Of a stretch of DNA of 45,816 nucleotides, positions 7,057 to 45,816 are shown one piece after another (within the stretch, counting starts at the first letter, position 1; every line of letters starts with the position of its first letter). The stretch is from Armatimonadota bacterium. GTDB taxonomy: Bacteria; Armatimonadota; Zipacnadia; Zipacnadales; UBA5352. The position numbers and the translations under genes are program-made. Below the pieces are notes generated by a model. That model saw nothing but the letters and a program-made list of their open reading frames with translations. It had not been told where the DNA came from and did not search any database. The stretch covers positions 6,269 to 52,084 of the forward strand of contig JBNGDZ010000003.1 of assembly GCA_049975765.1 (NCBI GenBank), written 5' to 3'.

Positions 7057-10000
7057 TCAGTCCTCCGCCCTCTCCGCAGGAACGACGCTGATGACCACGT
7101 CCGCACTCGTGTCCCCGAAGTCCAACTCGATACCTTCCCGGAGCTTCCCCTCCCGCACCAGCGCCGCCGTTGCCGCATCCCAAACGCGATAACGACAGGG
7201 GCCATCGAAGCCGCGAAGCGTCACGCGCAGGCGCCTCCGTCGGTCGGGCATTCGACAGCGCTCCACGGCGTGGATGTCGCACTCCATGATCTCATAGCGC
7301 GTGGCGTTACGCACGTAAGCGACCATCCAGCGCCGGTCGGACGACAGGGCGTAGGTGGTGTGGTTGCCCTCGCTTACGCGCACCGGCGAGGCCGCCTCCG
7401 CCGCCCGCCGCAGCGCGTCCTCAGCCGCCGGCCCGATCTCCTCGCGCGCGTCGAGCGTCACCAGGTAGCCGGCGCGGTCCGCCTCCGACCCGATGTACTC
7501 GCAGTCCACGGCCTGCGCCTGGAGCATCTCCTCGCACGCCACCAGGCGGCGGGCCGTCTCGGCGTCTATCTCGTCAAAGACCACGGCCACCGGCGGCTGT
7601 GCTCGACGGAACCGCGTCCAGTCTACCAGATTCCCGGCCTCGGCGAAAGCCCTCCGCAGCTCCTCCAGGGGCGGGGCCGACCACGAGATGGCCATCGTCT
7701 GCTGCAGCGTCAGCGCCAGGCCCATGGCGTCGCGGAGCTTGACCTGGAATTGCGGTGTCACCTTGATGCCGCACGCGACCTCCCCGTGATAGCTGGGAGG
7801 CGCCAGGTCGTAGAAGCGCGCGCAGACCGCCATGAAGCAGTCGGTGGGATACTGATGGGTCTGATAGGCCCGATAGCCGACGCCACCGTCGGTAGCCGGG
7901 GCGAACTCGGCGTAGCTTGCGGGGTGCCCCTCCCGGCAGTTGAGGATACCGCCGCCCTGCTCCAGCACCACCATCTGCTGCGGCGCGTGCCGCTTGATGA
8001 GGCTGTAGGCTCGGTTGATCCACTCCACCGGCAGAGCCTGGTCGTTCTCGCCCATGATGGTATAGGCCATGACCGCCGGATCGGAGCCGATGAAGCCCAG
8101 CAGCTCGTTGAGGTACTGCGACAGCAGCGCCCACATCTCGTCGTTGCGCCACTGCATCTGCTCCGGGTAGCCGGCCTCGAAGTAGGCGCTGACCGGCGGT
8201 CCGAACTGATTGTAGGGGTAGTGGAAGAGGTTGATGACCGCCCGAATGCCGTGGCGGCGAGCCGCGTCGAGAATGTAGCTGAGCTGCTCCAGGCCATGCA
8301 TCGCCAGGTGCCCGCCCGCGTCCAGGTAGTACTCGCGCACTTGGACGTTCGGGGTGATTCGGATGACCTCGACGCCGCTGTCCGCCAGGTGCGCCACGTA
8401 GCGCTGTATGTCCGCCCGTGGCATGACCCGCCATTTGGTGTGGGAGAGGTCTGCGCCCGCCCCCACGGCGCCCGAATAGTCGTCCAGGCCGGTGATCATG
8501 CGCCGGTCAGCAGCGCCGAGCTTCTCGTAGAGCACCCATGCGAACAGGTCCCCCAGCAGCGGGCCGGACGCCTCGCCATCGGGGGTGCAGTAGCTGCGCC
8601 TGGCGCGGTCGTAGCGGCTGAGGAAGTCCAGGTCGGTGACAGTGACTACGGCGCTGCCGGTGGCGAGCGTTCCACCTCCCTCACTCGCCGCCCGGAGCGA
8701 GATCTCGTGGCGACCGACCGGCAGTCCGACCAGCTCCGCCCGCCTCAGGCCGCTCTCGCCGACCGACGTCAGCTCGACGGGTCGGCCGTTGACGGTCGCG
8801 TAGAGCTGCCCTTCGTGCCCAATCGCACCATCGGCTCCGACGACGATCGCCTCCAGGGGCACCCCCTGCCTGGCGACATCCAGGGGGACGACAACCGGAG
8901 TGCGAGGGAGCACGGCGGCGGCCCCCGGCACGGTCAGGCGCAATGTCAGCCCCGGCCGCTGCGGGCCCTCGTCAGTGGCGCGGACCGTGACCACGAAGTC
9001 CATCTCGGCGCGGGCGTTGGGGCGCCCGGAGGCGCGGTAGATCTTCCGGAGGTCGAGCTCCCCCTCCGAGGGCGCGTCGGTCTCCTCGGTCTCCGCCAGG
9101 CGCCACACGAATTGATGGCCGCCGTCCGTCGCGCTCACGGCCAGCGACCAGGACACACCCCGTGGCTGAGCCGACCATCGCAGCCGGGGATGCTGGTCCA
9201 GGTTCCACTGCAGGGCCCGCAGCGCGAAGGTGGCCTCCGTCTCGCCTTCGGGCAGCAGGAACTCGGTCGTCTGCGCATCCACGTGCCGGATGGTGGGCTG
9301 GTCCGGCCAGCGTGGAACCTTGGGCAGCACCCAGCGGCGCAGCCGCAGCCAGCGGGAGACGCCGGACTCGCCCGTGAGCGGCATCTCGCCGGACGCCTCC
9401 CACGCGATGCAGCCGCCCGAGAGCCCCTCCTCGCTCGTCAGCCACCGCGTGGCCTGGTTGTAGACCACGGGGATCGCCAGCGGGTCGCTGGTCCCCGGTG
9501 GCGGAGGCGACGCCACCGGGAGCTTCTGCGCCTCGATCTGCAGGTCGTCTATGCAGGTGGCACCGCGGTTCTGCTCGTACTCGTCGGGCAGGTCCGGTCC
9601 GAGACGGTGCGAGTTCTGGAAGAAGCGCAGGAAGTAGGGCCCTCGCGTCAGGGCCCGGTGCTCCCGGAGAGTCGCCAGCGGCCGGTCTGACCCATCAGAC
9701 GTCACCTCGAGGACCTGCTCGGTGGATGAGAGCGTGAGAGCCATCCGATACCATCGGCCCTCCCGCACCTGCCCCTGTGCCGCCCGCTGGCTTCCCAGGA
9801 CAACGCAATCGTCCAGGCCGCCGCCCCCCAGTCCCACGTTGAGCCCCGACCATTCCCCGGAGCGCCGCAGCAGGGCCAGACCGCAGAAGTAGGTGTTGGG
9901 GCTGTCCTGCGCGAGCTGCTGGCGCCACCGTACCGTGGCGGGGAGGGCGATCGAGCGGTGCAGCAGCGCCCACGCCCACTTCCCCGTCTCGGGCGTGGTA

Positions 10001-31958: not shown

Positions 31959-32579
31959 ATGGAGTGGATCGCGGTGGACTACCTGACCGTGACGGAGGCG
32001 GCGGAGGCGCTTCAGCTCAGCGTCCCCACCATCAAGCGCTATATCTACGACGGGAAGCTGAAGTCCGCCAAGCTCCCCGGGGGCCAGCACCGCATCCCCC
32101 GCAGCGAGATAGACCGCTTGCTGACACCCACCGGGGAGGAGCAAGCGGAGGCGCTATCTGAGGAGGCCTCGCCCGGCGTTGACAAGCGACTGGCGGTCAT
32201 TGAACGCTGGCTGAGCGACCTGCAGGCCGAGGTCGAGCGGCTGGATTCCACCGCGCAGGTGGTCGCATCCTTCTGCGAGCGCGTGCCGGGAGCGTTCGCC
32301 GAGCGCGCCGCCCCTGAGGGCGGGGGTCATCGCCTGTACATCCTGGGGACCGGCTGCCCCAAGTGCAATCGGCTCCATGAACTCACCACGGAGGCCCTCG
32401 ACGAGCTGGGTGTGGCGGATGCGACGGTGGAGCACATCAAGGAGCCCGCGGAGATCGCCACCTATGGGCCGGTCCTCACACCAGCGCTGGTGCTGGATGA
32501 CACGGTGCTGATCAGCGGCCGCGTTCCCTCCCCCGGTGCGCTCCGTGAGATGCTGCAGGAGCACCTGGAGTCGGCATGA
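31959..32579 (+). CDS. Fusion protein: excisionase/MerR-type HTH DNA-binding domain + coiled-coil linker + Thioredoxin_3 (CxxC) domain; putative redox-responsive regulator
   Basis: N-terminus LTVTEAAEALQLSVPTIKRYIYDGKLKSAKLPGGQHRIPRSEIDRLL is an HTH_17/excisionase pattern. C-terminus YILGTGCPKCNRLHELTTEALDELGV...YGPVLTPALVLDDTVLISGRVPS is the pattern of the small redox-active disulfide protein (Thioredoxin_3). Its stop forms an ATGA overlap with the permease gene. Confidence 0.8.
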   Translation: MEWIAVDYLTVTEAAEALQLSVPTIKRYIYDGKLKSAKLPGGQHRIPRSEIDRLLTPTGEEQAEALSEEASPGVDKRLAVIERWLSDLQAEVERLDSTAQVVASFCERVPGAFAERAAPEGGGHRLYILGTGCPKCNRLHELTTEALDELGVADATVEHIKEPAEIATYGPVLTPALVLDDTVLISGRVPSPGALREMLQEHLESA

Positions 32580-33376: not shown

Positions 33377-34158
33377 TGGCGCTCATCGAGCTGTCCGACG
33401 TGGGGATGACCTTCACCGGCGCGAATGACAATGGCGCTGTCAGGGCGCTCGACGGCGTCACGCTGTCGGTTCGGGCCGGCGAGCTGGTGTGCGTGCTGGG
33501 CCCCAGCGGCTGCGGGAAGACCACGCTGCTAAACCTGGTGGCTGGCTTCATGCCCCCCACAGCGGGGAGCATTCGCTTCGACGGCAGGCCGGTGCGCAGC
33601 CCCGGACCCGACCGAGCGGTGGTCTTCCAGGACGCCGCGCTCTTCCCCTGGCTGAGCGTGGCCGGCAACATCGACTTCCCCATGCGCATGATCCACCGAC
33701 CGGAGGCTGAACGGCGCCGCGAACGCGAGCGGCTCATCGCCATGGTCGGGCTGGAGGGCTTCGAGGACGCCCATCCCCATGAGCTGAGCGGGGGGATGAA
33801 GCAGCGTGTCGCCATCGCCCGCGCGCTGGCACTGCAGCCCAGGGTGCTGCTGATGGATGAGCCCTTCGGCGCCCTCGACGCCCAGACCCGGGAGCGCCTG
33901 CAGGACGAGCTGCTCGGCATCTGGCGGCGCACGGGCACGACGATCCTGTTCGTGACCCACAACGTGGCGGAGGCGGCCTACCTCGGCGATCGGATCGTGG
34001 TATTCTCGCAACGGCCCGGACGGGTGCTGGACGACATCCCCGCCGAGCTGCCGCGGCCCCGCTCGCGCCTCTCCGACGGCGTCCGCTCCCTGGAGATGCG
34101 CCTGCTCCGGGAGCTGCCCGAGGTCCAAGACGTCAGTCCGGCGGCCGACTCCGCCTGA
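33376..34158 (+). CDS. ABC transporter ATP-binding protein, NitT/TauT family
   Basis: Track ORF 33244..34158 trimmed to ATG 33376 (TGATG overlap with the permease stop). Walker A GPSGCGKTT, Q-loop VFQD, signature LSGGMKQRVAIARAL, Walker B LLMDEPFGALD, H-loop VTHN. Confidence 0.9.
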   Translation: MALIELSDVGMTFTGANDNGAVRALDGVTLSVRAGELVCVLGPSGCGKTTLLNLVAGFMPPTAGSIRFDGRPVRSPGPDRAVVFQDAALFPWLSVAGNIDFPMRMIHRPEAERRRERERLIAMVGLEGFEDAHPHELSGGMKQRVAIARALALQPRVLLMDEPFGALDAQTRERLQDELLGIWRRTGTTILFVTHNVAEAAYLGDRIVVFSQRPGRVLDDIPAELPRPRSRLSDGVRSLEMRLLRELPEVQDVSPAADSA

Positions 34159-34179
34159 TATGATGCGAGGAGGTGCAGC

Positions 34180-35196
34180 ATGAGGCACGCACGACGTCTT
34201 CTGGTAGTGACGGTGGCGGTGAGCGCGGTGCTGACAGGCTGCGCGCGGAGGGAGCAGGCTCCTCCAGCGCCGGTCCAGATGCCGGAGCCAGTCGAGGAGG
34301 CGCGACGGCCGGTAACCGCGCGCTTCACCTACAGCGAGAAGACCTGCTACGCCCCGGTGATCGTCGCGGTCGAGAGGGGCCTTTACGCCGAGGAGGGGCT
34401 GAAGATCGAGAAGCAGGTGGTTACCGGCGGCATCGAGTCCGCGGAGGCCATCACCACCGGCCAGGCCGATCTGGCGGCGCTGGGCGACGCGCCGGCGGTC
34501 ATCTGTATGTCTCGCTCACCGAAGGTCAAGCTGCTGGCGCCGCTTGGCGACGGCGAGCGCATGCATCGCATCGTGGTCCGCTCGGACGCGGGGATCGACG
34601 AGCCCGCCGACCTGGCCGGCAGGCGCCTCGCCGTCCAGCACGGCTCCAGCACCCATGGCGCCCTGCTGCTGTATCTGAAGAAGCACAACGTGGACCCGGC
34701 CTCCGTCACCTTCGTCTCCCTCTCGCCGCGCGACTTCCCGGAGGCCATGTCGTCGGGGCAGATCGACGCCGCCGCCGGCAGCGCTCCCTGGCCTCAGAAC
34801 GTCCTGGCAACTTGTGACAATGCCGAGCTGTTCGCGAATCTGGAGGGCCTGGGCAACACCTACCCGGTGGTGATTCTCGTGCGCGGGGAGTTCGGCAGCG
34901 AGCACCCGGAGGCGGCGCGGGCCGTCGTGCGGGCGACCCAGGCCGCGGCCGACTGGATCGACGACCACCCGCAGGAGACCGCGGAGCTGCTCTCGCGCCG
35001 ATCCGGCGTCGAGCCCGACCGAGAGCGCGAGATGCTCAACGACTACCGCTTCGGCACCGATCTGACCCGGTCGGTCATCGACAGCCTGGAGATGACAGCC
35101 CACTTCCTCAAGGACCAGGGCCGCATCGACGAGGTACCGGACATCGAGGCCCAGCTCGCGCTGCCCGAGTTGCTGACTGAGGAGGAGCCTTCATGA
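34180..35196 (+). CDS. ABC transporter substrate-binding lipoprotein (NMT1/SsuA/TauA-like), copy 1
   Basis: Lipobox VLTGC. NMT1-like fold pattern: YAPVIVAVERGLYAEEGLKIE...GQADLAALGDAP...LAGRRLAVQHGSSTHG. GAGGAGG lies 6 nt upstream. Confidence 0.85.
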   Translation: MRHARRLLVVTVAVSAVLTGCARREQAPPAPVQMPEPVEEARRPVTARFTYSEKTCYAPVIVAVERGLYAEEGLKIEKQVVTGGIESAEAITTGQADLAALGDAPAVICMSRSPKVKLLAPLGDGERMHRIVVRSDAGIDEPADLAGRRLAVQHGSSTHGALLLYLKKHNVDPASVTFVSLSPRDFPEAMSSGQIDAAAGSAPWPQNVLATCDNAELFANLEGLGNTYPVVILVRGEFGSEHPEAARAVVRATQAAADWIDDHPQETAELLSRRSGVEPDREREMLNDYRFGTDLTRSVIDSLEMTAHFLKDQGRIDEVPDIEAQLALPELLTEEEPS

Positions 35197-36356
35197 CACT
35201 CAAGCTCGCGCGCCGCATCGTGCTATCCGCTGTGACGGTCGCCTCACTCGTTGCGCTAAACATGTTCTTGCCCCCCTCTGTGGAGGGCCAGTGCCCCAGA
35301 CCCGGGAGCTACTGGAAGTGCCCCGTCACCGAGCGCCCCGGCGAGCCAAGGCCGGGCGGCCTGACCGCTCGCGTGCAGGCGCGGTATTCCCACACGCAGA
35401 GCGACCCCGACCAGCCGACCTGGCTGGTGCGCGACGACCGAGCCGGCCGTGACGACTACAACACCAGGCGCCTCCGCCTCGCGTGGTCGCACCAGCCCTC
35501 CGAAGACCTGCTCGTCTTCGGCCAGATCCGCCGCGACTGGGGGGCCGACGAGTTCGAATGGCATGACCTCTACGCCACCTGGTCGGGGCTCGACTGGGGC
35601 AACCTCACCGTCGGTCAGATGATGGCGCCCTTCGACCGCCAGTTCATGACCAGCGACGTCAGGCTGCCCCTCGCGGAGCGGCCATCGTCCAGCATCCTGC
35701 TGGTTCCGGGCCGAGACATCGGCGCGCTGCTGCATGGCACGAGCAGGGATGGCTGCCTGGGCTGGTACGCCGGCCTCTACCTGGGTAACGGTAAGAACGA
35801 GCTCGACGCGACGGGCGCGCCGATGCCGGCGGCCCGAGTGGAATGGCTCGTCAGCGAGAACCTCAACCTAGGGGCGAACTGGGCACTGAACAACGGTGCC
35901 AGGACAAGCAAGTTCCGCAAATTCATCTCGGCGAACGGCGACCCCCTCGGCCTGGCGGAGCTCTACCGGGATCGGCAAGTGGACGAGGAGGCGTGGGGGC
36001 TGGATGCCATCTGGCGCGAGGGCCCGACCTCAGTCTGGGCCGGCTACAATGAGAAGAGCATCAGCGCCTCCGGCCGCCAGGGTGTCACCGCCAGCGGCTG
36101 CTACGCCCAGCTCAGCCGGTTCGTCCCGTGCAGCGGCGCTGAGGACAAGCTCGAGCTCGTGGGGGCGTGGGAGGAGTTCGATCCAGGCGCCGCGGCGCCG
36201 CCCAATCTGGAGGCCCGGTGGCTGACCCTGGGCGCGAACTACCACATCGAGGGCTGCGTGCGGCAGGTTCGGCTGCAATACATCCATCGCGACGAGGCCG
36301 CCGGGGACGTGAGCAACGACACCTTGCTGGTGCAGTACGAGCACGTGTTCAAGTAG
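35193..36356 (+). CDS. Outer-membrane porin, phosphate-selective porin O/P (OprO/OprP)-like, copy 1
   Basis: Signal peptide. Amphipathic beta-strand pattern: RVQARYSHTQ, RRLRLAWSHQPSEDLLVFGQI, LTVGQMMAPFDRQF, RDIGALLHG, WYAGLYLGNG. The C-terminus LLVQYEHVFK is a beta-barrel-type terminal aromatic. ATGA overlap with the binding-protein gene. Confidence 0.7.
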   Translation: MTLKLARRIVLSAVTVASLVALNMFLPPSVEGQCPRPGSYWKCPVTERPGEPRPGGLTARVQARYSHTQSDPDQPTWLVRDDRAGRDDYNTRRLRLAWSHQPSEDLLVFGQIRRDWGADEFEWHDLYATWSGLDWGNLTVGQMMAPFDRQFMTSDVRLPLAERPSSSILLVPGRDIGALLHGTSRDGCLGWYAGLYLGNGKNELDATGAPMPAARVEWLVSENLNLGANWALNNGARTSKFRKFISANGDPLGLAELYRDRQVDEEAWGLDAIWREGPTSVWAGYNEKSISASGRQGVTASGCYAQLSRFVPCSGAEDKLELVGAWEEFDPGAAAPPNLEARWLTLGANYHIEGCVRQVRLQYIHRDEAAGDVSNDTLLVQYEHVFK

Positions 36357-36383
36357 TGAGGGGCAAGAGGAGCATGATGCAGG

Positions 36384-36581
36384 AACGTGGCGGAGGCGGC
36401 CTACCTCGGCGATCGGATCGTGGTATTCTCGCAACGGCCCGGACGGGTGCTGGACGACATCCCCGCCGAGCTGCCGCGGCCCCGCTCGCGCCTCTCCGAC
36501 GGCGTCCGCTCCCTGGAGATGCGCCTGCTCCGGGAGCTGCCCGAGGTCCAAGACGTCAGTCCGGCGGCCGACTCCGCCTGA
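36384..36581 (+). pseudogene. 3' fragment (last ~65 codons) of the ABC ATPase gene, created by the tandem duplication
   Basis: Track ORF 36387..36581 (MAEAAYLGDRIVVFSQRPGRVLDDIPAELPRPRSRLSDGVRSLEMRLLRELPEVQDVSPAADSA) is identical to the C-terminus of 33376..34158. It lacks all nucleotide-binding motifs. Confidence 0.85.
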
Positions 36582-36602
36582 TATGATGCGAGGAGGTGCA
36601 GC

Positions 36603-37619
36603 ATGAGGCACGCACGACGTCTTCTGGTAGTGACGGTGGCGGTGAGCGCGGTGCTGACAGGCTGCGCGCGGAGGGAGCAGGCTCCTCCAGCGCCGGTCCA
36701 GATGCCGGAGCCAGTCGAGGAGGCGCGACGGCCGGTAACCGCGCGCTTCACCTACAGCGAGAAGACCTGCTACGCCCCGGTGATCGTCGCGGTCGAGAGG
36801 GGCCTTTACGCCGAGGAGGGGCTGAAGATCGAGAAGCAGGTGGTTACCGGCGGCATCGAGTCCGCGGAGGCCATCACCACCGGCCAGGCCGATCTGGCGG
36901 CGCTGGGCGACGCGCCGGCGGTCATCTGTATGTCTCGCTCACCGAAGGTCAAGCTGCTGGCGCCGCTTGGCGACGGCGAGCGCATGCATCGCATCGTGGT
37001 CCGCTCGGACGCGGGGATCGACGAGCCCGCCGACCTGGCCGGCAGGCGCCTCGCCGTCCAGCACGGCTCCAGCACCCATGGCGCCCTGCTGCTGTATCTG
37101 AAGAAGCACAACGTGGACCCGGCCTCCGTCACCTTCGTCTCCCTCTCGCCGCGCGACTTCCCGGAGGCCATGTCGTCGGGGCAGATCGACGCCGCCGCCG
37201 GCAGCGCTCCCTGGCCTCAGAACGTCCTGGCAACTTGTGACAATGCCGAGCTGTTCGCGAATCTGGAGGGCCTGGGCAACACCTACCCGGTGGTGATTCT
37301 CGTGCGCGGGGAGTTCGGCAGCGAGCACCCGGAGGCGGCGCGGGCCGTCGTGCGGGCGACCCAGGCCGCGGCCGACTGGATCGACGACCACCCGCAGGAG
37401 ACCGCGGAGCTGCTCTCGCGCCGATCCGGCGTCGAGCCCGACCGAGAGCGCGAGATGCTCAACGACTACCGCTTCGGCACCGATCTGACCCGGTCGGTCA
37501 TCGACAGCCTGGAGATGACAGCCCACTTCCTCAAGGACCAGGGCCGCATCGACGAGGTACCGGACATCGAGGCCCAGCTCGCGCTGCCCGAGTTGCTGAC
37601 TGAGGAGGAGCCTTCATGA
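36603..37619 (+). CDS. ABC transporter substrate-binding lipoprotein (NMT1/SsuA/TauA-like), copy 2
   Basis: 338-aa translation identical to 34180..35196. Confidence 0.8.
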   Translation: MRHARRLLVVTVAVSAVLTGCARREQAPPAPVQMPEPVEEARRPVTARFTYSEKTCYAPVIVAVERGLYAEEGLKIEKQVVTGGIESAEAITTGQADLAALGDAPAVICMSRSPKVKLLAPLGDGERMHRIVVRSDAGIDEPADLAGRRLAVQHGSSTHGALLLYLKKHNVDPASVTFVSLSPRDFPEAMSSGQIDAAAGSAPWPQNVLATCDNAELFANLEGLGNTYPVVILVRGEFGSEHPEAARAVVRATQAAADWIDDHPQETAELLSRRSGVEPDREREMLNDYRFGTDLTRSVIDSLEMTAHFLKDQGRIDEVPDIEAQLALPELLTEEEPS

Positions 37620-38779
37620 CACTCAAGCTCGCGCGCCGCATCGTGCTATCCGCTGTGACGGTCGCCTCACTCGTTGCGCTAAACATGTTCTTGCCCCCCT
37701 CTGTGGAGGGCCAGTGCCCCAGACCCGGGAGCTACTGGAAGTGCCCCGTCACCGAGCGCCCCGGCGAGCCAAGGCCGGGCGGCCTGACCGCTCGCGTGCA
37801 GGCGCGGTATTCCCACACGCAGAGCGACCCCGACCAGCCGACCTGGCTGGTGCGCGACGACCGAGCCGGCCGTGACGACTACAACACCAGGCGCCTCCGC
37901 CTCGCGTGGTCGCACCAGCCCTCCGAAGACCTGCTCGTCTTCGGCCAGATCCGCCGCGACTGGGGGGCCGACGAGTTCGAATGGCATGACCTCTACGCCA
38001 CCTGGTCGGGGCTCGACTGGGGCAACCTCACCGTCGGTCAGATGATGGCGCCCTTCGACCGCCAGTTCATGACCAGCGACGTCAGGCTGCCCCTCGCGGA
38101 GCGGCCATCGTCCAGCATCCTGCTGGTTCCGGGCCGAGACATCGGCGCGCTGCTGCATGGCACGAGCAGGGATGGCTGCCTGGGCTGGTACGCCGGCCTC
38201 TACCTGGGTAACGGTAAGAACGAGCTCGACGCGACGGGCGCGCCGATGCCGGCGGCCCGAGTGGAATGGCTCGTCAGCGAGAACCTCAACCTAGGGGCGA
38301 ACTGGGCACTGAACAACGGTGCCAGGACAAGCAAGTTCCGCAAATTCATCTCGGCGAACGGCGACCCCCTCGGCCTGGCGGAGCTCTACCGGGATCGGCA
38401 AGTGGACGAGGAGGCGTGGGGGCTGGATGCCATCTGGCGCGAGGGCCCGACCTCAGTCTGGGCCGGCTACAATGAGAAGAGCATCAGCGCCTCCGGCCGC
38501 CAGGGTGTCACCGCCAGCGGCTGCTACGCCCAGCTCAGCCGGTTCGTCCCGTGCAGCGGCGCTGAGGACAAGCTCGAGCTCGTGGGGGCGTGGGAGGAGT
38601 TCGATCCAGGCGCCGCGGCGCCGCCCAATCTGGAGGCCCGGTGGCTGACCCTGGGCGCGAACTACCACATCGAGGGCTGCGTGCGGCAGGTTCGGCTGCA
38701 ATACATCCATCGCGACGAGGCCGCCGGGGACGTGAGCAACGACACCTTGCTGGTGCAGTACGAGCACGTGTTCAAGTAG
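37616..38779 (+). CDS. OprO/OprP-like porin, copy 2
   Basis: 387-aa translation identical to 35193..36356. Confidence 0.7.
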   Translation: MTLKLARRIVLSAVTVASLVALNMFLPPSVEGQCPRPGSYWKCPVTERPGEPRPGGLTARVQARYSHTQSDPDQPTWLVRDDRAGRDDYNTRRLRLAWSHQPSEDLLVFGQIRRDWGADEFEWHDLYATWSGLDWGNLTVGQMMAPFDRQFMTSDVRLPLAERPSSSILLVPGRDIGALLHGTSRDGCLGWYAGLYLGNGKNELDATGAPMPAARVEWLVSENLNLGANWALNNGARTSKFRKFISANGDPLGLAELYRDRQVDEEAWGLDAIWREGPTSVWAGYNEKSISASGRQGVTASGCYAQLSRFVPCSGAEDKLELVGAWEEFDPGAAAPPNLEARWLTLGANYHIEGCVRQVRLQYIHRDEAAGDVSNDTLLVQYEHVFK

Positions 38780-38796
38780 TGAGGGGCAAGAGGAGC

Positions 38797-39843
38797 ATGA
38801 TGCAGGGCAGAGAGCGCATGCTGACGGCGCTACGAGGGGAGAGGCCGGATCGGGTGCCCATCTTCCTGCGCGACCTGACCCTCGGCCTGGACCTGTGTGA
38901 CTTCAGCACCCCTCAGGTCAGCGCCGGCTATGACGCGGACAGAGCCGCCGAGGCCGTGCTCACCAGCCGGAGGCGCTTCCATCAGGACGCGGTTGTCGGC
39001 TGCATCCACGACCTGGGGTTGGACGTCGAGCCGTTGGGCGGGCGCGTGGAGTTCCCGGAGCGCGGCATCCCGTTCATACGCGAGCATCCGCTCGCCGAGG
39101 ACGAGGCGGCGGCTGCGGCGGAGCCCTTCGACCCCGCTGAGGCCGGCCGGTGGCCGCAGGTGGAGAAGGCCTACCGGCTGGTGCGGCAGCGGCTCGGTGA
39201 CAGCGCGGCGGTGGCCGCCAACGTCGAGGGGCCGGTCACGCGGGCGGGGCTGCTGCGGGGCCTGGAGCGTCTGGCCATGGACCTGGCGACCGACCGCGGC
39301 ATGGCGCAGCGGCTCGTGGAGCTTTCGACGGAGATCGCCGTCAGGCACGTCCCCAGGCTGCTGGAGGCCGGCGCGGACTTCATCTTCATCGCCGCCGCCT
39401 CCGACGGCCCCGCCGTAATCTCGCCCCGTGACTACCTGGAGCTGACCATCCCCGGCCTGCGGCGGATTGTCCGGGCCGCGGGCGACGCGCCGGTGGTCTT
39501 TCATCCGCACGGGCGCTTCACCGACCCGCGCTTCCAGAAGCTGGTTGACGCGGCCATCGACTGCGGAATCGCCGGCTTCCAGTTCGGGGAGCACTGCGAC
39601 CTGGCGGTGGCCAGAGAGCGGTGGGGCGACCGCATCTGCATCCTGGGCGGCCCCGACATCCCGGAGGTGCTGCTGCCCGGGCCGCCCGAGCGCGTCCGAG
39701 AGGTGACCAGGGAGTGTCTCCAGCAGGCGATGGGCGATGGCGGCTACGTTCTCATGGCCTCCTGCTCCCTGCACCGCGGCGCTCCCCTGGAGCACCTGGA
39801 CGCCATGGTGCAGACGGTGCTCGATGAGGGCGGGTACGGGTAG
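38797..39843 (+). CDS. Uroporphyrinogen decarboxylase (URO-D) family protein (MtaA/CmuA-like methyltransferase/decarboxylase fold)
   Basis: Track ORF 38590..39843 trimmed to ATGATG at 38797/38800, which has AAGAGGAG upstream. N-terminus MMQGRERMLTALRGERPDRVPIF is the typical URO-D family opening. Also contains AAVAANVEGPVTRAGLLRG, AGADFIFIAAASDGPAVISPRDY and ILGGPDIPEVLLPG. Confidence 0.75.
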   Translation: MMQGRERMLTALRGERPDRVPIFLRDLTLGLDLCDFSTPQVSAGYDADRAAEAVLTSRRRFHQDAVVGCIHDLGLDVEPLGGRVEFPERGIPFIREHPLAEDEAAAAAEPFDPAEAGRWPQVEKAYRLVRQRLGDSAAVAANVEGPVTRAGLLRGLERLAMDLATDRGMAQRLVELSTEIAVRHVPRLLEAGADFIFIAAASDGPAVISPRDYLELTIPGLRRIVRAAGDAPVVFHPHGRFTDPRFQKLVDAAIDCGIAGFQFGEHCDLAVARERWGDRICILGGPDIPEVLLPGPPERVREVTRECLQQAMGDGGYVLMASCSLHRGAPLEHLDAMVQTVLDEGGYG

Positions 39844-42725: not shown

Positions 42726-43721
42726 ATGACGGTCGTGCATCGAGGAACCATCGCAGTCGTCGCCGCGGCGTGCCTCAGTGGGTCGCTTGCGGCTGACGGG
42801 GCGGGCGACCGGGAGCAGGAGGAGCTGCTGGGCTGGGTGCGTGAGCTGCAGTATCAGGCCCGCAACGACGATGCGCTGCGACTGTGCGAGGCGCTCCTGG
42901 AGGCCGATCCCCGCTGCGCCGAGGCGCGCGTGCGGCGTGGCATCATCCTACTCGGCAGGGGCCAGTACGAGGCCGCCCGCGACGAGTTCTCACGGGCGCT
43001 GGAGCTGCAGCCGGGGACTGCCATGGCCCTCGTCGGTCGAGGATACGCGCTGTCGGGCCTGGACGAGCAGCAGGCAGGCCGGCGCGATGCCCGCAGGGCC
43101 ATTCGCGTCTGCAGTCGGAGCATCGAGCGGGATGCCGGCGACGCCAACGCGCACTTCCAGCGTGGGTTGGCGAGGCTACTGGTGGAGGAGACGGCCCGAG
43201 CCTTACAGGACTTCATCACCGCCACGAGGCTGGACGAGACGCTGGTGGAAGCGTACACCGAACGGGCTCGGATCGAGCGCGCCCAGGGGCGAGTCGCGGA
43301 CGCGGTCCGGACGCTCACCACCGCGGTGACCATCCGTCCCAACTACGCGGTGGGCCACCTGGCGCTGGCCCGCGTGCGTTTCGAGAGTAGGTCTTACACC
43401 GCTGCCCTGGCTGACTGTGATCGGGCGCTGCAGATCAACCCCCTCTACGCCCAGGCCTGGCACAACCGGGGACTGGTGGACCTGCAGATCCGCGACTTCG
43501 AGCAGGCCGTCAGGGACCTCACACGCGCCGTCGAGCTGGATCCGGACTACGCCAGCGCGCACTACTACCGCGGCGAGGCCTACCTCGCCGCCGGGGACCA
43601 GGCGGCCGCACGGGCCGAATGGGAGATCGCCAGGGAGCTCGACCCGGACGGCTGGGCGGGCAAGACCGCCGCGGAGATGCTGAGCAAGCTCGAGTCCGCC
43701 GGTCGGCAGCCTCAGTCGTAG
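42726..43721 (+). CDS. Tetratricopeptide (TPR) repeat protein with N-terminal signal/anchor
   Basis: Track ORF 42351..43721 trimmed to ATG 42726 (MTVVHRGTIAVVAAACLSGSLAA; GAGGGAGAG upstream). At least 6 TPR-like 34-aa units: A..RRGIILLGRGQYEAARDEFSRALELQP, AHFQRGLA..., AWHNRGLVDLQIRDFEQAVRDLTRAVELDP, AHYYRGEAYLAAGDQAAARAEWEIARELDP. Confidence 0.8.
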   Translation: MTVVHRGTIAVVAAACLSGSLAADGAGDREQEELLGWVRELQYQARNDDALRLCEALLEADPRCAEARVRRGIILLGRGQYEAARDEFSRALELQPGTAMALVGRGYALSGLDEQQAGRRDARRAIRVCSRSIERDAGDANAHFQRGLARLLVEETARALQDFITATRLDETLVEAYTERARIERAQGRVADAVRTLTTAVTIRPNYAVGHLALARVRFESRSYTAALADCDRALQINPLYAQAWHNRGLVDLQIRDFEQAVRDLTRAVELDPDYASAHYYRGEAYLAAGDQAAARAEWEIARELDPDGWAGKTAAEMLSKLESAGRQPQS

Positions 43722-45046
43722 CTCGGCATGAAGGCCGTGACCCGCATGGCCTCCTCGATGGCAACCTGGCCGGCGAGGACCTTGCGGGCCGCGTCATGGC
43801 GCATCGGATCGCGCTTGCCGGCAGCCACGCGCTCGACCTCCCTGAGGTCCGCGTCCCCGCCGATCATCTGCCGGAGCTCGTCGTCGATCACGAGCAGCTC
43901 ATGGATCGACATGCGACCCCGATAGCCGGTGCCGCGGCAGGCCTCGCAGCCGGCCCCGCGCGTCAGGCGGTCGGGCGGGTCCTCGACGCCGGCGCTCTTC
44001 AGCCACTGCCTCTCGGACTCCGTCAGCGCGTGCTCCACGGCGCAGTGCGGGCAGAGCCTGCGCACCAGGCGCTGGGCGAGCACGCCCAGGAGTGTCTCCG
44101 CGATGAGGAAGCGCTCCAGGCCGACGTCAGCCATGCGGCGGATCGCGCGGATGGCATCGTCCGTGTGCATCGTGCTCAGGAGCAGGTGGCCGGTGATCGC
44201 CGCCGTCACGCAGAGCATCAGGGTCTCCAGGGTCCGGATCTCCGCGCACAGGATGATGTCCGGGTCCTGGCGCAGCACATGGCGCATGGCGGCGGCCGGG
44301 TCCAGCCCGGCCTTCCGGTTGACCGGGACCTGCGTCACTCCGTCGATCTGAAACTCCACCGGGTCTTCGATGGTGGAGATGGCGATCTCCGGGCGGATCA
44401 GAGACTTGATCGCGGCGTAGAGCGTGGTGCTCTTGCCCGCGCCCGTTGGGCCGGCCACCACGAGCATCCCGTTGGGGCGATGGAGCAGGTCATCGAGGGT
44501 CGCGCGGATGTCATCACTCATGCCGATGTCGTCGAGGCTGAGCGCCATGAGACTCCTGTCCAGGACCCGCATGACAACAGACTCGCCGACGGCGCTGGGC
44601 ACCGACGAGACGCGCAGATCGTAGTCCCGCTTCTGGTGCGTCACCACGATCCGCCCGTCCTGCGCGGTGTTGCGCTCGGCGGCCGACATCTGCGCCATCA
44701 GCTTGATTCGGGCCACCAGCGCCAGCCCCAACTCCTTCGCCACGGCTCGCCGATCGTGGAGCACCCCATGGATGCGGTGGCGGACGCGGTAATCCTCAGA
44801 GCGTGGCTGGACGTGGATGTCGCTCGCGCCCGCCTCCACGCCCTCCTTGATGATCTCCTTCGCCATCGAGACGATCTGGGGATCGCTGGCCCGGTCCAGC
44901 AGGGCCACCAGGCGGGCCGCGCCCTCCGCCTCGGCCTGGCAGGCAGTGCATCGCGCCAGGTGCGCCTCCACCGCCTCACGCCGTTCGTCGTCAAGCTCGC
45001 CCTTGTGATACGCCACCAGCAGCTCCCGGCATTCCTCGCACTTCAT
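43712..45046 (-). CDS. Fusion protein: zinc-binding anti-sigma (ZAS, zf-HC2) domain + GspE/PilB-type secretion ATPase core
   Basis: N-terminus MKCEECRELLVAYHKGELDDERREAVEAHLARCTACQ gives C3/C6...H29-x3-C33-x2-C36. It is followed by GASDIHVQP, Walker A GPTGAGKST, Asp box STIEDPVE, Walker B DPDIILCAEIR, His box GHLLLSTMHT and tetracysteine CPHC...CEACRGTGYRGR. The start lies 3 nt after the ECF sigma stop. Confidence 0.85.
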   Translation of the reverse strand: MKCEECRELLVAYHKGELDDERREAVEAHLARCTACQAEAEGAARLVALLDRASDPQIVSMAKEIIKEGVEAGASDIHVQPRSEDYRVRHRIHGVLHDRRAVAKELGLALVARIKLMAQMSAAERNTAQDGRIVVTHQKRDYDLRVSSVPSAVGESVVMRVLDRSLMALSLDDIGMSDDIRATLDDLLHRPNGMLVVAGPTGAGKSTTLYAAIKSLIRPEIAISTIEDPVEFQIDGVTQVPVNRKAGLDPAAAMRHVLRQDPDIILCAEIRTLETLMLCVTAAITGHLLLSTMHTDDAIRAIRRMADVGLERFLIAETLLGVLAQRLVRRLCPHCAVEHALTESERQWLKSAGVEDPPDRLTRGAGCEACRGTGYRGRMSIHELLVIDDELRQMIGGDADLREVERVAAGKRDPMRHDAARKVLAGQVAIEEAMRVTAFMPSYD

Positions 45047-45049
45047 GGC

Positions 45050-45625
45050 TCAGTCCTCCTCGGTCAGCGTCTGGCGCAGCTTGAGGTAGGCGTGGTGCAT
45101 GCGCGACTTGACCGTGCCAACCGGGATCCCGAGCAGCTCCGCGATCTGCGCGTGCGCCAGCCCCTCGAAGTGTGACAGCACGAATACCGTGCGCTGCCCC
45201 TCGGGCAGGCCGTCGATGGCCCGGCGGATGCGGAAGCGCTCGTACCCGCGCAACAGCTCCTGCTCGGGGACATCATCACGCGCGATCAGCTCACGCAGCA
45301 GCGCTCTCGCCTCCTGTCCGACCTGGCCCTGGAGCGAGATGACCGGAGGGCGACGGCTCCCGCGGTCTCTGTGATTGCGCCACCAGTTGCGGGCGCAGGC
45401 GAACAGGAAGGTGGTGAAGGCCGCAGTCGGCTCGTAGCGGTCGCGCGCCAGCCAGACGCGGACCAGGACCTCCTGGGCACCGTCCTCGGCAGCCTCGCGG
45501 TCCCACGTCATATGGTAGAGGAAGCGCTCCACCCACTGGTGGTGGCGGCGGGCCAGCTCGCAGAAGGCCTCCGCGTCGCCATCGCGCGCCAGCAGCATCA
45601 GCTCTTCATCGCTGAGCTCGCCCAT
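45050..45625 (-). CDS. ECF-type RNA polymerase sigma-70 factor
   Basis: Region 2: AFCELARRHHQWVERFLYHMTWDREAAEDGAQEVLVRVW. Region 4 HTH: LPEGQRTVFVLSHFEGLAHAQIAELLGIPVGTVKSRMHHA. ATG 45625 has GAGGA 7 nt upstream. The track start ATG 45643 has no SD sequence. Confidence 0.9.
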   Translation of the reverse strand: MGELSDEELMLLARDGDAEAFCELARRHHQWVERFLYHMTWDREAAEDGAQEVLVRVWLARDRYEPTAAFTTFLFACARNWWRNHRDRGSRRPPVISLQGQVGQEARALLRELIARDDVPEQELLRGYERFRIRRAIDGLPEGQRTVFVLSHFEGLAHAQIAELLGIPVGTVKSRMHHAYLKLRQTLTEED

Positions 45626-45816
45626 GAGGGATCCTCGGTGCATGAAACAGGCACGGCAGCAGACGGTTCACAGTGGATCGACGAATCGCGGGCCGCTGCA
45701 GAGCGAAGCGAGCGGCGGGCGCGCGCGCCGGCCTCCCAGAGTGGCCGGTCAGGGGCGTCCGCCAGCCCCTCGGGTGTTCGCCAAGGGCGACGGCGCGTGC
45801 GTCCCCAACGGTCGCG

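Follow-up and report, generated by a model that had tools for sequence, protein, structure and literature searches.

The window analysed here, a 45,816-nucleotide stretch of the Armatimonadota contig JBNGDZ010000003.1 (assembly GCA_049975765.1) with a G+C content of 68%, carries in its last 2 kb two co-oriented open reading frames (ORFs) on the minus strand. The first encodes an extracytoplasmic function (ECF, group IV) sigma factor, and the second encodes a 444-aa fusion protein in which a predicted zinc anti-sigma (ZAS) domain is followed by an ATPase core of the GspE/PilB type (Table 1). An earlier reading of this DNA made from the sequence alone (the sequence-only reading) had placed the sigma ORF at 45050..45643 and the fusion ORF at 43712..45046, both on the minus strand and separated by 3 nt (45047-45049); both ORFs were recovered, with the fusion ORF beginning 3 nt past the sigma stop codon.

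The sigma factor and the ZAS-ATPase fusion protein

The sigma factor carried the Pfam domains Sigma70_r2 (residues 30-97) and r4_2 (residues 137-189), with no Pfam match for region 3, and scored 96.2 bits against TIGR02937 (cut-off 42.9), so that its earlier annotation as an ECF sigma factor holds. Its nearest solved relatives were SigW, RpoE, and PDB 6in7_B, deposited as a sigma-H factor and taken by us to be AlgU in complex with MucA. The true start codon is most likely M7 at 45625, because all sigma orthologues use the equivalent start, the NCBI record begins there (from M7 the window sigma factor is identical to NCBI protein P0121, 191 aa), a GAGGA Shine-Dalgarno sequence precedes it, and the upstream ATG at 45643, which opens the longest sigma ORF by an extra 18 nt (45626-45643), falls within the promoter -10 element and is unlikely to be used. 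The start at 45643 given by the sequence-only reading is probably 18 nt too far upstream for the same reasons. The Shine-Dalgarno sequence of the fusion gene lies inside the end of the sigma gene, through which translation of the fusion protein may be coupled to that of the sigma factor.

The N-terminus of the fusion protein was matched by Pfam zf-HC2 (PF13490) at residues 3-37 with 36.4 bits (gathering cut-off 22.2, E=5e-9), and the predicted zinc ligands C3, H29, C33, and C36 form the pattern C3-x25-H29-x3-C33-x2-C36. From the zinc anti-sigma signature described earlier, these four residues were retained, but not C6, which is present in only 21/43 sequences. A family profile of the 56 N-terminal residues matched the solved structures of RslA (3hug_B, E=3e-5), ChrR, DdvA, and RsiW, and the N-terminal segment alone matched the NCBIfam anti-sigma, RsrA, and ChrR models with E-values of 1e-6 to 2e-5, all under the equivalog cut-offs. 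AlphaFold2 placed helices at residues 3-15, 20-32, and 34-53, in agreement with the three helices predicted earlier, and the predicted local distance difference test (pLDDT) score of the ZAS model was 95.4 alone and about 90 within the full-length model. When this model was compared by Foldseek with the whole PDB, the 12 best matches were all anti-sigma domains crystallised with a sigma factor (ChrR, RskA, RslA, RsiW, and DdvA; template modelling (TM) score 0.53-0.75, root-mean-square deviation (rmsd) 1.2-2.7 Å), with E-values that remained weak (0.3-3) because the domain is short. The matches to ChrR and RslA had TM scores of 0.69-0.75 and rmsd values of 1.2-1.6 Å.

Two residues past ZAS helix 3, the chain enters helix 56-71, the conserved first helix of an N2E-type domain, and the near absence of a linker in the model suggests a rigid mechanical connection between helix 3 and N2E. 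In the ATPase cycle of PilB-type motors, N2E moves against the C-terminal domain. The N2E segment aligned with TIGR02533 model positions 109-230 at 120 bits, the N2E/ATPase model retrieved PilF, PilB, and EpsE in Foldseek, and Pfam T2SSE (PF00437) matched residues 54-435 at 370.8 bits, which, like the zf-HC2 score, lies above its cut-off. The full-length monomer model (pLDDT 93.6, predicted TM score 0.82) superposed on Thermus PilF, Geobacter PilB, and Vibrio EpsE with TM scores of about 0.8 over about 390 residues, and the ATPase part is about 40-45% identical to EpsE, PilF, and PilB. The annotation as a ZAS domain fused to a GspE/PilB ATPase core is therefore supported by both Pfam and fold.

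The Walker A motif (G199-T207), Asp box (E227-E231), catalytic (Walker B) E269, and His box (H287/H294) were all present in the window protein, with every catalytic residue intact in the motifs GPTGAGKST, TIEDPVE, AEIR, and GHLLLSTMHT, and a tetra-Cys zinc motif was found at C332/C335/C367/C370, with His at the first position in 10/43 relatives. No transmembrane segment was detected, the highest Kyte-Doolittle 19-residue mean (1.6) lying in a core beta strand; motif alignment and hydropathy thus bear out what had been read for both features. Alignment to the GspE model began only at position 84, and that to Vibrio GspE (PDB 4pht) at residue 110, indicating that the N2E and C-terminal domains are kept and that N1E is replaced by the ZAS domain, which occupies the N1E/MshEN slot as proposed earlier. 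Consistently, the Pfam scan returned no N1E or T2SSE_N (MshEN, PF05157) match in the fusion protein, whereas its nearest non-fusion relatives all carry PF05157. The NCBIfam equivalog cut-offs were not reached (TIGR02533, 441 vs 630; TIGR02538, 387 vs 676). The ATPase body probably forms a hexamer. Within the fusion coding sequence, a hairpin that resembles a terminator and has a weak T tract (44582-44609, minus strand) is probably a chance match in G+C-rich DNA.

Table 1. Features of the sigma/fusion locus and its 3' neighbour (window coordinates)
Feature	Position	Strand	Detail or basis
ECF-type operon promoter TGAACCGTCTGCTGCCGTGCCTGTTTCA	45643..45670	-	Matrix match, 18.6 bits
Shine-Dalgarno GAGGA, 6 nt from the sigma ATG at 45625	45632..45636	-	Read from sequence
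ECF (group IV) sigma factor gene	45050..45625	-	191 aa + TGA stop
Shine-Dalgarno GAGGAGGA of the fusion gene, within the last sigma codons	45054..45061	-	Read from sequence
Fusion residues 1-55, three-helix zinc anti-sigma domain	44882..45046	-	Pfam, profiles, predicted fold
Fusion residues 56-170, N2E-type domain	44537..44881	-	TIGR02533, AlphaFold2, Foldseek
Fusion residues 171-444 + stop, C-terminal RecA-like ATPase domain	43712..44536	-	Pfam T2SSE, motifs
Convergent TPR protein gene, probable start 42726	42726..43721	+	331 aa; Pfam TPR families

Occurrence, gene order, and promoter of the pair

In a search of 5.8 billion proteins, sequences of matching length and PF13490 + PF00437 domain order formed about 30 clusters, reaching down to 43% identity, and the next-best proteins were ordinary PilB/GspE proteins with T2SSE_N, many of them from Armatimonadota. 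Among the 150 best matches in 1.84 billion proteins clustered at 50% identity, 12 were full-length representatives. A degenerate DNA signature spanning C3...L18...H-L-x2-C-x2-C-x2-E...A53...D-x-H78 was found in 24/185,579 species-representative genomes and in 50 metagenome contigs, all of which proved to be true family members. In total, 73 unique sequences from about 64 lineages (at 90% N-terminal identity) were obtained, and the orthologous sigma plus ZAS-T2SSE pairs that the earlier reading had left to be searched for occur in nearly all of these lineages. In the databases, these proteins are named only "ATPase, T2SS/T4P/T4SS family" or "GspE/PulE family protein".

Carrier genomes belonged to Armatimonadota (Armatimonadia, "Zipacnadia", and Fimbriimonadaceae) with the exception of three records, two of which name no phylum (L026, "bacterium"; L030, "metagenome"). 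The third (L009) is a 3.25-Mb contig labelled "uncultured Desulfobulbus sp." (NZ_CAXXTL010000002.1), a label that is doubtful because its fusion protein shares a 90% cluster with a protein from an Armatimonadota metagenome-assembled genome. As such, the module is apparently confined to Armatimonadota.

This distribution also bears on whether the fusion is genuine. An assembly error or frameshift could have merged two genes, one for a small anti-sigma protein and one for an ATPase, and the source is a metagenome-assembled genome, with nothing else in favour of such an artefact. However, the same architecture and uninterrupted junction recur in 73 unique sequences, whose assemblies and sequencing projects are independent of one another, and because the orthologues share the architecture, this explanation is excluded, its residual probability being negligible. 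Fusion ORFs that end early (142-251 aa) were observed in L017 (688-1155), L033, L043, and L068 and represent pseudogenes or assembly frameshifts; L005/L011 have a split sigma gene and a fusion gene whose C-terminus is frameshifted.

The sigma gene lies immediately 5' of the fusion gene on the same strand in 30/31 of the loci collected earlier with enough flanking DNA (window included). In the metagenome loci, it is upstream in 49/49 of those having upstream DNA and immediately upstream in 46/50, and the gap between the two genes ranges from -11 to +127 nt. Three further metagenome loci have an explained gap. In L045, an IS-like gene with a helix-turn-helix transposase N-terminus lies on the opposite strand between sigma and fusion (1159-2361, oriented). 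In L067 (909-2330, oriented), a segment of about 160 residues, Clp_N-like by eye, precedes the ZAS domain in the same ORF, and the ATPase no longer has the Thr of Walker A, the Asp of the Asp box, the catalytic Glu, or the His of the His box. In L065 (1891-2925, oriented), a single ORF contains two successive ZAS-N2E units, the first with degenerate motifs, and then the ATPase core, which suggests that ZAS and N2E behave as one evolutionary module.

All-against-all clustering of neighbouring ORFs revealed no family other than sigma and fusion in more than 6 of the about 64 lineages, and in none of these lineages was a platform, pilin, secretin, or prepilin peptidase gene linked to the module. 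The absence of pilus or type II secretion system (T2SS) genes noted earlier for the vicinity of the locus was likewise confirmed for the window, with no platform (GspF/PilC), pilin, secretin, or prepilin peptidase gene among its 30 large ORFs (up to 45816). The convergent TPR gene overlaps the 3' end of the fusion gene by 10 bp (43712-43721), as first described. It was rejected as a third component, being conserved downstream only in the clade of the window (about 4-5 of the about 64 lineages).

Upstream of the sigma gene, a position weight matrix (PWM) derived from the regions 5' of 22 orthologous sigma genes identified an ECF-type promoter with its -35 element TGAACC at 45670-45665 and its -10 region CTGTTTCA at 45650-45643, the sole match of at least 13 bits on either strand of the 45.8 kb, and no sigma-70-type promoter was found at this site. 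The corresponding motif, tGAACCttt-N11-gCGTTcta (GAAC-N16/17-YGTT), lies 40-170 nt 5' of sigma in 22/22 non-redundant loci, and TGAACC-N16/17-YGTT combines an ECF-like GAAC-type -35 with a short conserved -10. Over the first 33 sequences (L001-L032 plus the window, about 340 kb), 54 matches of at least 14 bits were observed, compared with 5-11 in shuffled controls. Most probably, the sigma factor itself recognises the TGAACC-N16-TGTT operon promoter, and promoter and synteny together have the layout expected of an autoregulated sigma/anti-sigma pair. A scan of the window and all loci with the same matrix revealed no recurrent target beyond the sigma and fusion genes. In L003, a sigma-type promoter lies 5' of a URO-D-family gene (8161-9294) that precedes sigma, giving a three-gene operon, and URO-D-family genes also occur within a few kb of the module in L005 and L007.

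A second promoter copy scoring 18-26 bits was found directly 5' of the fusion gene in L003, L015, L016, L024, L010, and L028, loci that have a long gap between sigma and fusion or in which the two are not linked. In L028 (317-2639), the order is inverted, the fusion gene coming first and sigma following 360 nt downstream, and each gene has its own high-scoring TGAACC...CGTT promoter; in L010 (274-1685, oriented), the fusion gene has its own high-scoring promoter and no sigma gene is present in the available flank. A sigma-type promoter of its own would also be expected of the fusion gene if it were simply a target, that is, if the sigma factor activated a specialised motor ATPase whose zinc bundle is a structural replacement of N1E docking elsewhere and has no anti-sigma role. 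This explanation is very unlikely: all significant sequence and fold matches of residues 1-55 are anti-sigma domains solved with sigma, an operon with sigma first and its partner second is the canonical arrangement of sigma/anti-sigma pairs, sigma and fusion form the only conserved unit across the about 64 lineages, and members with decayed ATPase catalysis still keep the ZAS domain. Near-universal adjacency, the shared promoter, and the status of sole conserved pair indicate that the two genes are functionally linked.

A proposed regulatory role for the ATPase fold

Taken together, we propose that the locus is an autoregulated two-gene ECF sigma/anti-sigma cassette in which a secretion-type ATPase serves as the sensor or scaffold module, a reading to which we assign a probability of about 0.68. 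Most probably, by analogy with RslA, the ZAS domain binds the sigma factor, at least at sigma-4, and keeps it off RNA polymerase. In 3hug, RslA is visible as a chain of about 60 residues bound to the sigma-4 domain alone, a chain that we take to be a three-helix ZAS bundle.

The division of labour between the two halves of the fusion protein is suggested by what has decayed in the family. In 21/73 sequences, the Lys of Walker A, the Asp box, the catalytic Glu, or the His box carries substitutions, and these are concentrated in the "MKCEEVRDE..." clade, in which E269 is replaced by A/G/D/Q/K and H294 by L/S/D. Because the catalytic residues are degenerate in this clade, hydrolysis is dispensable in part of the family and not universally required, and the function kept everywhere appears, from the sequences, to be that of ZAS and sigma. 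A role of the ATPase fold as sensor or scaffold is thus favoured over one of the ZAS domain as a motor accessory, since the ZAS-sigma partnership is kept while catalysis decays.

Several observations weigh against the proposed cassette. The separate helix 4 of class I anti-sigma domains is absent from the AlphaFold2 model, which has a ZAS domain with helices 1-3 only, and in class I anti-sigma factors helix 4, following a flexible linker, supplies most of the co-evolving sigma-2 contacts (PMC7406223). The invariance of C3/H29/C33/C36 in 43/43 sequences of the larger set was partly imposed by the search pattern in loci L009-L082, although the 26 homology-derived sequences, in which the four ligands are likewise invariant, are free of this constraint. 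Moreover, distance-matrix correlations with sigma did not separate the ZAS domain (r = 0.77) from the ATPase (r = 0.76), and the PWM scan yielded no further promoter match in the window beyond the operon promoter. The sequence-only reading had suggested that sigma sequestration could be coupled to the nucleotide or oligomeric state of a hexameric ATPase and/or to zinc-thiol redox chemistry; its annotation of the sigma and ZAS-ATPase pair stood, and its interpretation is qualified by the absent helix 4 and by the clade with degenerate catalysis.

In the proposed cassette, the sigma and fusion genes would be co-transcribed from the ECF-type promoter, and the zinc-bound three-helix ZAS domain would hold the sigma factor away from RNA polymerase. 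The ATPase body would act as the input or scaffold module, in the role played by the cupin domain in ChrR, and the sigma factor could be released when the ATPase switches nucleotide state, oligomeric state, or docking partner and thereby alters the ZAS domain, with oxidation of the ZAS zinc thiolates as a further possible release route. The freed sigma factor would then raise its own operon, providing both positive and negative feedback, together with a wider regulon.

In a more specific version, which is possible but doubtful, the ring ATPase itself would be the anti-sigma sensor, with up to six sigma factors held on ZAS domains at its rim and released on nucleotide change, on assembly or disassembly, or on docking to a pilus or secretion platform encoded elsewhere. 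If this were true, there would be a direct covalent link from the working state of an envelope nanomachine, or from the cellular energy state, to an ECF regulon, following the checkpoint logic of FlgM/sigma-28 but acting through the motor itself.

A redox switch of the RsrA type would place the signal in the ZAS domain, the sigma factor being released only on zinc-thiolate oxidation while the ATPase performs a separate motor job with a machine encoded elsewhere, and the fusion would then tie stoichiometry or let sigma binding regulate the motor. In keeping with this, the Cys ligands C3, C33, and C36 never vary, C3 and H29 are 26 residues apart, as are C11 and H37 in RsrA (TIGR03988 alignment positions 1-51), and the -10 GTT resembles that of SigR/SigH-type promoters, which carry a GTT-type -10. 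The ATPase motifs are also fully intact in the window protein, and, as a weak hint, a canonical thioredoxin gene (WCGPC) divergently adjoins sigma in one clade comprising 6 of the about 64 lineages (L020, 606-1037; L037, 274-648; L042, 2372-2755; L055, 5788-6123; L009, about 1717-2100), near a MalK-like ABC ATPase.

The RsrA model TIGR03988, however, reached only 24-27 bits against a cut-off of 62.5, no linked pilus or T2SS partner gene occurs in any lineage, and in one clade the catalytic residues of the ATPase are degenerate. Thioredoxin was rejected as a sigma target because none of its genes is faced by a sigma-type promoter. Furthermore, a zinc motif is no predictor of redox sensing: that of RsiW has a structural role, and anti-sigma groups are mixed with respect to such motifs (PMC7406223). 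A purely redox-driven switch is accordingly judged unlikely. A link to anti-phage defence was also rejected, as PADLOC returned weak P-loop noise only.

Bacteria use ECF sigma/anti-sigma pairs as one of their main means of signalling. If the cassette functions as proposed, the secretion/pilus motor ATPase would represent a new class of input module for anti-sigma factors, and a motor ATPase fold would be recruitable as a regulatory scaffold, to which the catalytic decay with ZAS and sigma kept also points. With two genes and a defined promoter, the module is compact; it lends itself to testing in a heterologous host and might serve as an orthogonal switch.

Related systems and other features of the window

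Overall, the kind of module, a sigma/anti-sigma pair, is known, whereas the ATPase partner domain is unprecedented. The closest counterpart in layout is ChrR/sigma-E of Rhodobacter sphaeroides (PDB 2q1z), in which, as in the fusion protein, a soluble anti-sigma factor encoded beside an ECF sigma gene joins an N-terminal zinc anti-sigma domain to a C-terminal sensor domain, and ChrR was also the best fold match of fusion residues 1-56 (Foldseek TM score 0.75, rmsd 1.6 Å). ChrR differs in having a cupin as its C-terminal module and a fourth helix, whereas an ATPase of about 390 residues directly follows helix 3 in the fusion protein. RslA/SigL of M. tuberculosis (PDB 3hug) gave the best profile match (E=3e-5; rmsd 1.2-1.4 Å) and shares the H-x3-C-x2-C site, but RslA sits in the membrane, extends outside the cytoplasm, and has no enzymatic domain. 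RsrA/SigR and RshA/SigH resemble the present pair in being cytoplasmic, in their C-H-C-C ligands of the same spacing, and in the GTT-type -10 of their autoregulated promoters; RsrA and RshA differ as stand-alone proteins of about 100 aa, and the RsrA family model scored 27 bits on the fusion protein against 62.5.

On the ATPase side, GspE/EpsE, PilB/PilF, and MshE share the N2E domain and ATPase core and likewise carry a regulatory domain at the N-terminus, but this slot is occupied in the known ATPases by N1E, which binds GspL, or by MshEN, which binds c-di-GMP, and in the fusion protein by an anti-sigma domain. Unlike GspE and PilB, the fusion family stays below the equivalog cut-offs, shows no linkage to platform, pilin, secretin, or peptidase genes, and includes some catalytically degenerate members. 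FlgM/sigma-28 provides a conceptual precedent for relaying to gene expression the state of a secretion or pilus machine or of its ATPase. Other precedents are SpoIIIA-SpoIIQ/sigma-G, for coupling of a machine (the SpoIIIA ATPase) to a sigma factor (PMC2703783), and PilB acting as a signalling protein in Myxococcus (PMC5544727); in all of these systems the anti-sigma factor or signal is a protein of its own and no ATPase carries an anti-sigma domain, and the hypothetical link in the fusion protein would be direct and covalent.

The list of known inputs of soluble anti-sigma factors is short, comprising redox, partner switching, and one case of mechanosensing (PMC8999054), and a review of soluble anti-sigma factors describes nothing like a ZAS-ATPase fusion. 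A search of the full-text literature, with the supplements of the ECF reclassification outside its scope, found no paper joining an anti-sigma domain with T2SSE, GspE, or PilB, in agreement with the earlier statement that no anti-sigma factor of this architecture has been characterised. As for the ECF reclassification itself, neither T2SSE nor Armatimonadetes is mentioned in its main text (PMC7826278). A large survey of class I anti-sigma domains discarded, without reporting them, 132 subgroups with atypical Pfam domains (PMC7406223), and because subgroups whose extra Pfam domains looked unlike those of anti-sigma factors were dropped, ZAS-ATPase fusions may have been systematically missed.

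The remaining genes of the window encode glycosyltransferases, a sulfotransferase, a sulfatase, GH20- and GH123-like enzymes, an iron-containing alcohol dehydrogenase (Fe-ADH), a split transketolase, a beta-lactamase-fold protein, and an ABC transporter. A perfect (100%) tandem duplication of 2,423 bp was observed at 33961-36383 and 36384-38806, each unit carrying a gene for an NMT1-type substrate-binding protein and a 387-aa ORF without a Pfam match, and it is either very recent or an assembly artefact. Directly 5' of the ABC transporter genes, a 206-aa ORF (31959-32579, plus strand) has an HTH_17 (excisionase/MerR-like) DNA-binding domain at its N-terminus and a Thioredoxin_3 domain at its C-terminus, and its product may be a redox-linked regulator.

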